The notes beneath the pieces are model-generated. The model did not search any database. It had not been told where the DNA came from and saw nothing but the letters and a program-made list of their open reading frames with translations. A stretch of 64,000 nt of DNA from Bacteroidota bacterium (GTDB lineage: Bacteria > Bacteroidota > Ignavibacteria > Kapaibacteriales > UBA2268), in assembly GCA_024278075.1 (NCBI GenBank), contig JAJRTW010000155.1, positions 4,191 through 68,190 of the forward strand. Reading direction: 5' to 3'. Every line of letters starts with the position of its first letter. Within the stretch, counting starts at the first letter, position 1. This document shows positions 59,171 to 60,704 of the stretch, one piece after another. The position numbers and the translations under genes were made by a program.

Positions 59171-59715
59171 TTTATTCTCCTATGCGAATTAAGTATATGC
59201 AACTGCTCTTTTAACTCCTCATGTGATCGTATCTCTATTATTTCATCTATAAAATCATCTATAATCAGTCTGATTGCATTATATTTCCGAATGCCCTTAC
59301 GATTCTTCTTAAATTGTCTATTCAATTTCCTTGCGAAATCTTCCGGGGATTTTAATTGTGTTGATTTATCCGCATAAGTTACTTCTAAGTGCCATTCACC
59401 CTCTGTTTTATCATCATATCGAACTGATATAACATTTTGTTCATAATATATAACTGGCTCTTGAAGTTCTTTTACAGACAGGTCATATTTGCCTTTCCCC
59501 ATTGCGAATGACAAAATCATTTTCAATAATATTTTAGCCGTCGATATTTTAATTTCATCTTTACGAATCTCAATCAATTCGTTATTGATTAGCTGTATCC
59601 CAGTGATTCTCGATAAAATATGTGACGTACCGCCATCTTCATATTCTAATGAAAATGCCGAATGATCGTAGTCATGGCAACTAATTATATTTTTTATTCT
59701 TAGATATGGATACAT
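59152..59715 (-). CDS. Hypothetical protein
   Basis: 187 aa. The start is preceded by the 21-nt repeat 'aaacaattagaaatggtggga'. Confidence 0.4.
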   Translation of the reverse strand: MYPYLRIKNIISCHDYDHSAFSLEYEDGGTSHILSRITGIQLINNELIEIRKDEIKISTAKILLKMILSFAMGKGKYDLSVKELQEPVIYYEQNVISVRYDDKTEGEWHLEVTYADKSTQLKSPEDFARKLNRQFKKNRKGIRKYNAIRLIIDDFIDEIIEIRSHEELKEQLHILNSHRRIKCDGSD

Positions 59716-59721
59716 TATTCT

Positions 59722-60342
59722 TCATCCCACCATTTCTAATTGTTTGACATGCAGTTTATATCGAGACATAGCATCATTATAGAACCTTTCATCTATTTCA
59801 TACCCGGTTAAATTGAAACCTAAATCCCAGCAGGCAATCGCAATACTGGCCGAGCCTAAATGAGTGTCAAGGATATTATCATTTCCCTTTGCGTAATGTG
59901 TCAAAAGCCATTTGTATAATTTCACCGGCTTTTGAGTAGGATGAATTTTACCGCTTACTCTGTTGTCAAAATAAAACATTTTTGAAGGACACTGAAAACT
60001 CATCCATGCATATTCACATCTTGAAAAATTAGGGAAAGGTTGTAACTTATCCCAAACAACGAACCCTCTTGTCGGCAGTAAGTCAAAATAATTTCCTCCC
60101 CATATTATTTGATTTTTTGATACTCGGAATAATTCATTAAAATATTCTTTAGATGGTGCAATATCCCATCTCCTTATATTTTCTTTATTGATTATTCTAT
60201 TTTTTAATTTCCCTCGTCCGTGGGTGCTATTTTTTGGCATTCCATACGGCGGATCAACGATAGCCAACTCATATTGATTGTCCTGCATACTTTTCATTGC
60301 ATCCATGCAATCCATATTATATAAATTAATATCGGCTGCCAT
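59722..60342 (-). CDS. DNA N6-adenine/N4-cytosine methyltransferase (beta-class, DPPY)
   Basis: 'YNMDCMDAMKSM...ELAIVDPPYGM'. Confidence 0.7.
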   Translation of the reverse strand: MAADINLYNMDCMDAMKSMQDNQYELAIVDPPYGMPKNSTHGRGKLKNRIINKENIRRWDIAPSKEYFNELFRVSKNQIIWGGNYFDLLPTRGFVVWDKLQPFPNFSRCEYAWMSFQCPSKMFYFDNRVSGKIHPTQKPVKLYKWLLTHYAKGNDNILDTHLGSASIAIACWDLGFNLTGYEIDERFYNDAMSRYKLHVKQLEMVG

Positions 60343-60704
60343 TATCCCACCATTTCTAATTGTTTATTAATCATAAATTCAGGGTATTCTTCATATAAAT
60401 TACCGTCTATTGTCCTGTCCGGGTTCTTCCGCACACCGCCCCAGCCCTTAAAAAAGAACGGCACACCGGCTTTTTTGCACTGATCCCGGATGCTTAATCC
60501 CCATTTGTATGGACGGGCAAGTTCGTCCTCGTGGCAAACGACGGTATCGAATCCGTGCTTATACTTCTCCCTGGTGGCCGGCATTTTCTGCAAACGCTTT
60601 GTCATTCGCTCGGCATAGCAGTTCTCGCACCCTGCGGACACCTTAGTGCAGCCCGTTACCGGATTCCAGGTCTCATCTGTCCACTCTATTTTAGTTTTTG
60701 GCAT
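60342..60704 (-). CDS. Phage Gp37/Gp68 (DUF5131)-like protein, short form
   Basis: '[27 protein letters not shown]' and '[10 protein letters not shown]'. TAATG coupling to the methyltransferase. Confidence 0.5.

Follow-up and report, generated by a model that had tools for sequence, protein, structure and literature searches.

The question raised by this locus is how one short sequence came to stand, letter for letter, on both sides of a single gene. The locus belongs to a 64,000-nt stretch of DNA from a Bacteroidota bacterium (contig JAJRTW010000155.1 of assembly GCA_024278075.1, positions 4,191 to 68,190; hereafter the window, to which all positions refer unless a related locus is named), where a gene for a DNA methyltransferase is bracketed by a short direct repeat within an array of small accessory genes. 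In a preliminary description of this DNA, the repeat had been viewed as the original junction between an upstream DUF5131 gene and the next gene downstream, duplicated upon insertion of an orphan methyltransferase. Family comparison assigns the repeat to the methyltransferase gene itself, so that the direction of copying is opposite to that earlier proposal: whatever the route, the upstream copy is very probably a secondary copy of the methyltransferase 3' end. The value of the analysis is mainly corrective, as a gene framed by a clean direct repeat readily suggests an insertion footprint; the feature itself, a scar of recombination or duplication within an accessory-gene array of fast turnover, is ordinary in its meaning.

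The repeat and the reading frames that end in it

The 21-mer TCCCACCATTTCTAATTGTTT is present in two exact copies (59725–59745 and 60345–60365), precisely as previously described, and no further copy was found in the window with up to three mismatches allowed. A pair of such matches was obtained in 0 of 100 dinucleotide-preserving shuffles, with none expected by chance. The exact identity spans 22 nt (ATCCCACCATTTCTAATTGTTT, hereafter J), the two copies being spaced by 620 nt. On the minus strand J reads AAACAATTAGAAATGGTGGGAT and encodes KQLEMVG, the last seven codons, together with the first stop-codon base of two adjacent open reading frames (ORFs), a DUF5131-like one and the methyltransferase gene. 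The main features of the locus are as follows.

59724–59745, minus strand: downstream copy of J, the native 3' end of the methyltransferase gene (KQLEMVG plus the first base of TGA)
60344–60365, minus strand: upstream copy of J, very probably derived; the last seven codons plus the first stop base of the DUF5131 relic
59722–60342, minus strand: beta-class N6/N4 methyltransferase (N6_N4 family), 206 codons (PF01555, 52.5 bits vs. a cut-off of 26.7)
60342–60704, minus strand: DUF5131-like chimeric ORF of 120 codons, composed of a DUF5131 N-terminus (profile positions 1–67), a DUF5131 C-terminus (IRDQC...EYP), EFMIN and KQLEMVG
60405–60674, minus strand: GC-rich core of the DUF5131 relic (codons 11–100)
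60366–60374, minus strand: ATGATTAAT, directly 5' of the upstream J, reading M-I-N
59152–59715, minus strand: ORFan of 187 aa directly downstream of the methyltransferase gene, with an initiation region consisting of J plus GAAGAATA

The translations bear out that both proteins end in KQLEMVG and that J carries a Shine-Dalgarno-like GGTGGGA, and the TAA of the upstream ORF indeed overlaps the methyltransferase start as TAATG. The distance of 5–8 nt formerly given for both start codons needs to be revised: the 21-mer ends 2 nt before the ATG of the methyltransferase gene (GGGA-TA-ATG) and 9 nt before that of the 187-aa gene (GGGA-TGAAGAATA-ATG), the downstream J being followed by TGA, the spacer GAAGAATA and the ATG of the 187-codon ORF. 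The GGTGGGA element stands 9 nt from the start of the 187-aa gene, a typical spacing for this array, and just 2–3 nt from the start of the methyltransferase gene, which fits an origin of J at the methyltransferase-to-187-aa junction. The 8-mer GAAGAATA, found after the downstream J, also occurs 19 nt before the upstream J; this second occurrence falls within native DUF5131 codons (EEY) and was judged to be a chance AT-rich match.

J shows no sign of acting at the level of transcription or RNA folding. Promoter-like sites in the region 58400–61500 are about as numerous as in shuffled sequence (17 vs. 13.7±3.6), and the one weak promoter match (9/12) spanning the upstream J has no counterpart at the downstream copy; no terminator-like site was found at either copy, and the folding z-scores of the two copies are +1.14 and +0.38. 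A role of J as an RNA structure, promoter or terminator was thus ruled out, no signal rising above chance. Inverted repeats at the ends of the methyltransferase unit were sought and not found, nor was any transposase or integrase domain detected there.

The repeat belongs to the methyltransferase gene

Assignment of the gene to the beta class of N6/N4 methyltransferases is based on the PF01555 hit and on motif order, the motif IV sequence VDPPYG (residues 29–34, with DPPY at 30–33) lying N-terminal to the S-adenosylmethionine (AdoMet) motif I (DTHLGSAS, approximately 160–167), and the enzyme also matches the PADLOC model MTase_II (3.6e-48). It has thousands of homologues, the best at 71% identity, which occur in varied phage contexts. 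Its neighbours gave no nuclease family hits in profile searches that would point to a cognate restriction enzyme; the methyltransferase is likely an orphan, the 187-aa neighbour being a possible novel restriction enzyme.

The polarity of the repeat was read from a sample of 80 loci in IMG/VR viral contigs with homologues at 48–63% identity. In all 80 homologues the alignment extends to the C-terminal residues of the window enzyme, and the tail is ...H-x-[KR]-Q-L-x-[LM]-F, often followed directly by the stop or by one G; the 20 closest database homologues (63–71% identity) end alike (e.g., HQKQLTLF*, HKRQLNLF*, HQSQMRMF*), giving a family tail that can be summarised as H-x-x-Q-L-x-L-F. A loose form of this motif, Q-x-x-[LMIFV]-[FLIWVY] within the last 16 residues, is present in 96 of 119 methyltransferase homologues; it forms the very C-terminal end in 54 of them and is followed by one extra residue, as in the window, in 15. 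A stricter form is found in 23/119 methyltransferase homologues vs. 0/119 DUF5131 homologues. In the window enzyme the tail reads H-V-K-Q-L-E-M-V-G*, the J-encoded Gln standing in the family register, three residues after a conserved His that is itself encoded outside J. KQLEMVG is thus native to the methyltransferase family and unlike the tails of DUF5131 proteins, which makes the DUF5131 ORF the bearer of the derived copy. In light of these data, J does not represent a DUF5131/next-gene junction duplicated by insertion. The view of the methyltransferase ORF as a precisely delimited insert holds insofar as a gene-exact unit is flanked by J, but one of the two copies lies inside this ORF as its own 3' end.

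The upstream frame is a decayed DUF5131 gene

The upstream ORF, formerly treated as an ordinary gene, is a truncated relic of 120 codons. Its DUF5131 profile score (105 bits) is above the cut-off, but both Pfam and PADLOC profiles match only positions 1–67 and the C-terminal ~45 of ~243, leaving out ~125 central positions, so that the ORF falls short of a full-length domain. In the alignment, ...RPYKWGL is joined directly to the C-terminal segment, with a deletion junction L70|S71 at approximately 60494/60495. DUF5131 (phage Gp37-Gp68) is catalogued as a subgroup of the radical S-adenosylmethionine (radical-SAM) superfamily (PMC9477430); judging from the alignment, the missing part of the relic corresponds to the barrel core, after the N-terminal three-Cys motif.

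The relic is also mosaic in composition. The GC content at third codon positions (GC3) of codons 11–100 is 0.6–0.9 in eight of nine ten-codon blocks (pooled, ~0.68) and 0.3 in codons 61–70, while codons 1–10 and 101–120 show values of 0.1–0.3, like the surrounding genes, and remain DUF5131-homologous up to ...EYP. A GC-rich core between AT-rich ends, combined with an internal gap, points to a resident AT-rich DUF5131 gene that received a GC-rich patch and suffered an internal deletion, the core appearing to be a recombinant patch. GC content was also considered as a sign that the DUF5131 gene is a newcomer; it proved undecisive, as the ends are local in composition and the core alone is GC-rich. 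The last 12 codons of the ORF encode EFMIN followed by KQLEMVG; DUF5131 homologues show a conserved DG..W.E.P, followed by a short, variable and unrelated tail.

Conservation of the DUF5131-methyltransferase pairing, a point raised by the preliminary description, was not observed: a DUF5131 gene occurs at just one of the 80 methyltransferase loci, at a distance of 4 kb, and of four DUF5131 loci inspected, three lack an adjoining methyltransferase, the fourth (phage Panchino) having a small ORF noted as 'methylase' two genes away. In this mycobacteriophage, the DUF5131 gene adjoins a DUF4326 gene.

Several separate observations concern this family and its neighbourhood. Short DUF5131 proteins of 118–145 aa are present in public data (P0005, P0009, P0011, P0014, P0029 and P0047), two of which (P0005 and P0011) resume at the same IRDQC position as the window relic; this set could reflect either recurrent decay or a real short form. 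The relic matches the PADLOC candidate defence components PDC-M30B and PDC-M41B (E ~1e-37), and a neighbouring DUF488-N3a gene (61031–61384) matches PDC-M45C (1e-8); the relic may come from a defence or counter-defence module. The array, otherwise at 30–40% GC, contains two GC-rich patches (51–58% GC or GC3), the DUF5131 core and, at 58092–58517, a gene for an SNase/EcnA-like lipoprotein nuclease, which suggests recent imports from higher-GC donors.

Tandem methyltransferases in related phage loci

More than one methyltransferase hit was found in 10 of the 80 related loci, and two of these loci are closest in kind to the window feature in that they carry tandem arrays of beta-class methyltransferases: IMGVR_UViG_3300007538_000299 (L043; two genes, 559–1881) and IMGVR_UViG_3300025889_014720 (L059; three genes, 3159–5167). 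Adjacent paralogues in both arrays share 90–100% nucleotide identity over the first ~100 nt and the last ~200 nt and have divergent middles, presumably the target-recognition region; this mosaic structure suggests swapping of specificity domains within arrays. As a consequence of the shared 3' ends, the sequence just before the start of a second gene is that gene's own 3' end. The likeness to the window extends to the family (PF01555, 52–55% identity to the window enzyme) and to the near-identical 3' ends, which encode ...H.xQ.QL.. and a stop. The difference is that all copies in L043 and L059 are intact, whereas the window retains just 22 nt (at most 31 nt) of a putative upstream copy, fused to the DUF5131 relic. 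Short relics upstream of methyltransferases were not found in the 80 loci, the upstream methyltransferases being intact tandem or adjacent ones (L043, L059 and L078). A candidate relic in L037 was rejected as an out-of-frame chance match.

Other forms of repetition are also seen in these phages. In L012 and L013 a methyltransferase gene is bracketed by three collinear direct-repeat segments that span ~135 nt of intergenic sequence (L012, 5402–6307). Repeats at the level of the Shine-Dalgarno sequence and ATG are frequent across the 80 loci, and junction-level repeats are thus widespread in phage early regions. In many of the contigs, near-identical initiation regions in several copies precede unrelated early genes, for instance GGTCTCTCCACTTCAACTGGAGAAACAACATG occurring four times in L037 (1461–2580) and AACGAGGTACAAAATGAC being found in L014, L016 and L022.

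Junction repeats are a general property of the island

The genes around J are small accessory genes arrayed in one direction (Tad2-like, SNase-like nuclease, DUF488 and nucleoside deoxyribosyltransferase-like, among others). A scan for short-range direct repeats (spacing, 60–2000 nt; score of at least 16) yielded six repeats in the 13.6-kb array vs. none in 40 Markov shuffles; five of the six, J included, are located at gene junctions and each brackets one gene. Over the island as a whole, at least five further genes are bracketed by their own repeats of 19–48 nt, in two cases with relic mini-ORFs, as follows.

54885–54912 and 55526–55553, minus strand: 28-nt pair (27/28 identical) bracketing a 164-aa gene; the downstream copy starts the relic METEMK*
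54067–54093 and 54702–54728, minus strand: 27-nt pair (24/27 identical) comprising Shine-Dalgarno sequence, ATG and AAA, bracketing a 204-aa gene
58513–58531 and 58826–58844, minus strand: 19-nt pair (18/19 identical), AATAGGAACTGAA[A/T]ATGAA, bracketing the Tad2-like gene, the next gene being the SNase-like nuclease
57611–57632 and 57771–57792, minus strand: 22-nt pair (20/22 identical), GAATGATGGAAAAGT..., bracketing a 44-codon ORF; the gene before it contributes its last codon and stop to the upstream copy
40668–40715 and 41032–41079, plus strand: 48-nt pair covering the initiation region and first 10 codons, MRTAILFR[T/A]Y, of a 252-aa gene

In the last of these pairs, the upstream copy lies 364 nt before the copy at the 252-aa gene and opens a 17-codon relic ORF (MRTAILFRTY..., at 40686). 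Residual homology of paralogous neighbours was ruled out as the source of the repeats, since BLASTP found no similarity between genes sharing them. Pair-specific junction repeats and relic gene ends are, therefore, a general property of this region. This bears on a caveat of the preliminary description, according to which the repeat could turn out to be a general ribosome-binding-site motif of the island: the 21-mer itself is not general, but pair-specific junction repeats are.

A further direct repeat of 52 nt (53443–53494 and 54987–55038; 90% identical, 1544 nt apart) resembles the 3' half of a tRNA on the minus strand (GGTTCAAATCC T-loop plus acceptor strand). ARAGORN and Rfam found no tRNA in it, and a tRNA origin was set aside on these grounds; the repeat could represent att-core remnants of integrative elements or fragments of tRNA genes.

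A possible former tandem copy and the competing routes

By what route did the end of the methyltransferase gene reach the junction upstream of it? We tentatively favour a former tandem methyltransferase copy, the body of which was later deleted or replaced, on account of the tandem precedent in L043 and L059, the decay of the DUF5131 gene and the recurrence of local partial duplications in the element. According to this scenario, a second methyltransferase gene would once have stood in tandem upstream as a product of local duplication, and its 3' end (J) would be all that remains. The DUF5131 gene, having lost ~125 central codons and gained the GC-rich patch, would have come to read in frame into J and to stop at the TAA. 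Translation of the methyltransferase may now depend on stop-start re-initiation by ribosomes delivered by the relic ORF, because GGTGGGA is placed just 2–3 nt from its ATG; such a role would explain why a continuous frame of 120 codons has been kept through two in-frame deletions. Recombination between the two copies of J would delete exactly 620 nt, i.e., the methyltransferase, giving GAATTTATGATTAAT-J-GAAGAATAATG. What would remain is a relic ORF ending in KQLEMVG-TGA, and the 187-aa gene would retain its initiation region intact. The broader meaning of such a history would be in the turnover of accessory and anti-defence arrays, in which local duplications leave relic gene ends that are then co-opted as stop-start junctions, and the short repeats so created set the stage for a further precise deletion.

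Several points weigh against a lost tandem copy. The tandem unit that it implies, 620 nt long and running from 1 nt upstream of the ATG to the first base of the stop, follows the gene boundaries with an exactness that is suspicious in a random duplication; no other methyltransferase fragment was found in the window; and no relative of the island showing an intermediate state was found in the collections searched. The nine nucleotides directly 5' of the upstream J, ATGATTAAT, do encode M-I-N, the commonest N-terminus of this methyltransferase family (15/119), and might be read as the start of a deleted copy, yielding a "start plus end" relic. That reading is ambiguous and was downgraded, as ATTAAT is enriched before starts throughout the array, and it is not relied upon here. 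Finally, a templated patch of 22 nt would give the same sequence in one step.

Such a patch, produced by template switching or ectopic gene conversion with no second full methyltransferase ever present, is the next route to be considered, and we deem it rather unlikely, if the least so among the alternatives. In the course of replication or repair, a nascent end in an A-rich initiation region upstream of the methyltransferase gene (ATTAATAAA...) would have mispaired with ...GTCAAACAATTAG at the gene 3' end 600 nt away, copied ~22 nt and returned immediately upstream of the ATG, the left edge being set by the AAA microhomology of the ATTAATAAA-type region with GTCAAACAA. This route requires one event vs. 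a duplication followed by near-complete deletion, and it is in line with the lack of any other methyltransferase remnant in the window. It also agrees with the left edge of J, which abuts ATTAAT|AAA, AAA being a microhomology with GTC|AAACAA; the presence of ATTAATAAAAAAG in the start region of the DUF5131 ORF makes a ATTAATAAA-type initiation region plausible at this place, and the 22/22 identity of the two copies indicates a recent event. However, a 22-nt patch has no direct precedent in these data, full tandem copies with shared ends are directly seen in relatives, and elsewhere in the island junction repeats enclose whole genes instead of occurring as isolated patches.

Mobile cassettes offer a more dynamic interpretation. 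In T4-type phages, the PeSL regulatory cassettes (Arbiol et al., 2010, PMC2839356; Comeau et al., 2014, PMC4122927) combine an early sigma70-like promoter with a stem-loop terminator in composite motifs present in many copies, and crossovers between Shine-Dalgarno/ATG and the -10 box generate mini-circles of ~400–1400 bp (PMC2839356). By analogy, recombination between the copies of J would excise a 620-bp circle (junction CTGCATGTC-J-AATGGCAGCC, with CATGTC before J) able to re-insert at J-like junctions; what is seen now would be a reversible switch in its 'integrated' form, with further cassettes marked by the remaining junction repeats of the island. PeSL appears to be the closest described system in mode of working: in both cases single accessory ORFs of a hyperplastic region stand between direct repeats that are placed at gene junctions and overlap the Shine-Dalgarno/ATG, and in the phages recombination between such repeats deletes or inserts the ORF. 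The layout resembles that of PeSL-flanked ORFans in T4-type phages; five further island genes are bracketed by pair-specific repeats, the methyltransferase of L012/L013 is repeat-bracketed, and initiation-region repeats are common in the 80 related loci. Membership in the PeSL class fails, however, as J has neither promoter nor stem-loop, nor any RNA structure above chance, is partly coding, measures only 22 nt and exists in two copies. The bracketing layout itself is seen for six genes, though each pair has its own sequence. Furthermore, no recombinase or single-strand annealing protein was recognised among the window proteins, and since J is native to the methyltransferase gene, an earlier event is needed to supply the first upstream copy. 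Cassette exchange, with re-insertion of an excised circle at a junction derived from the methyltransferase gene, is judged improbable and ranks third among the routes. Equally improbable, in our estimate, is that the junction repeats are working parts of a minimal exchange system, with the methyltransferase as a reversible ON/OFF cassette at the population level; in that case, short Shine-Dalgarno/ATG homologies could suffice for circle excision and re-insertion of single anti-defence genes. Were an active mechanism of this type at work, PeSL-type shuffling would extend beyond T4-like phages, to homologies of ~20 nt, in an unrelated element.

Insertion of an orphan methyltransferase with target duplication at an original DUF5131-to-187-aa junction, i.e., the model of the preliminary description, has some attractive features. 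Direct repeats do flank a gene-exact unit, the empty site that it predicts (DUF5131...KQLEMVG*-GAAGAATA-ATG) is well formed with a well-spaced Shine-Dalgarno sequence, and the AT-rich 3' end of the DUF5131 ORF indicates a resident DUF5131 gene. Recombination at gene junctions was, moreover, a reasonable class of mechanism to invoke, as five other island genes show the same order of repeat, gene, repeat and next gene, and repeat-flanked or tandem methyltransferases are found in relatives. Nevertheless, J was not a pre-existing junction: it encodes the family motif in register and at a family-typical length (by our estimate, a chance resemblance of ~1e-4 to 1e-5), and no DUF5131 homologue ends in this way by the stricter motif. 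J resembles a target-site duplication or att core as an exact direct repeat on both sides of a gene-sized unit, and differs from one in belonging to the 'insert' (the methyltransferase C-terminus) rather than to the target, as well as in the lack of transposase, integrase and terminal inverted repeats. Adjacency to DUF5131 is not conserved, and 22 nt is far above the usual length of target-site duplications. Mosaic joints, or 'morons', of tailed phages offer a further comparison. The array shares with them an accessory gene of differing composition and history, unrelated small genes side by side and joints at gene boundaries, but classic morons (Hendrix/Hatfull school) carry their own promoter and terminator, whereas the window methyltransferase has neither and would rely on the stop-start overlap with the upstream ORF. 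Overall, the insertion model is judged very unlikely. An assembly artefact, i.e., a mis-join through the shared 21/22-mer in a de Bruijn graph, is also very unlikely: although 21–22 nt corresponds to a k-mer length often chosen as the smallest, current assemblers complete their work at k well over 22 and a repeat of 22 nt is bridged by reads, both junctions are clean with in-frame ORF ends and a canonical TAATG overlap, a mis-join would still need J in both contexts in the sample, and the mismatched junction repeats of the island are impossible as k-mer artefacts.

Other features of the island and the window

The window is part of a bacterial contig, in which genes for CheA, an OPT transporter and HEAT/PD40 proteins are found in the first ~23 kb and are followed by a very poorly characterised mobile element that carries CHAP, SLT and transglutaminase domains as well as a 1476-aa ddrB-ParB/AAA polyvalent protein; no capsid or terminase was recognised among the window proteins. 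No exact match to the 21-mer was found in the collections of viral, genome and metagenome contigs searched. For the 187-aa protein, no homologue was found among 5.8 billion proteins or among 1.84 billion representatives and profile searches gave no family hits, and its single-sequence AlphaFold2 (AF2) model is unusable (predicted local distance difference test, pLDDT, of 34.8). Searches for relatives of the island via the 187-aa gene, the DUF488 gene, the Tad2-like gene and the 1476-aa polyvalent protein found none, as did megablast against phages; the 141-aa nucleoside deoxyribosyltransferase-like gene has homologues in nine viral contigs, without synteny.

The palindrome ATTAAT is unevenly distributed in the window. 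Within 50400–64000, 13 of its 32 occurrences lie at most 40 nt upstream of a start vs. 2.8 expected (P ~1e-6), with enrichment at 11–28 nt before the minus-strand starts of the array (examples of the hexamer being at 60366, 60727, 60957, 62047, 58529 and 57384), and its density is 2.35/kb in the array vs. 1.21/kb elsewhere in the window. A -10-like element, a stop-rich spacer and a regulator site are all conceivable explanations.

Repetition is also seen outside the accessory array. On the plus strand at 25191–32352, about eight consecutive genes encode similar N-termini (MSYNYDN, MGYNSGT, MSYNTSN, MSYNDEN, MYNRENV, MSYRTAN, MYRTDNPNGLSGLG and MYRASILEGLGG), which may represent an N-terminal signal or propeptide of otherwise unannotated, perhaps virion or secreted, proteins. 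The gene of the 1476-aa polyvalent protein contains an internal duplication of 158 nt (46275–46432 and 47640–47797; ~90% identity, 1365 nt apart) encoding the repeated segment M(T/S)LM(E/Q)QAQ..FEKITKLYSLAKEKGKIK. In the chromosomal part, two 63-nt copies (8427–8489 and 8503–8565; 61/63 identical, spaced by 76 nt) lie upstream of a Big_5-domain gene at 8606.

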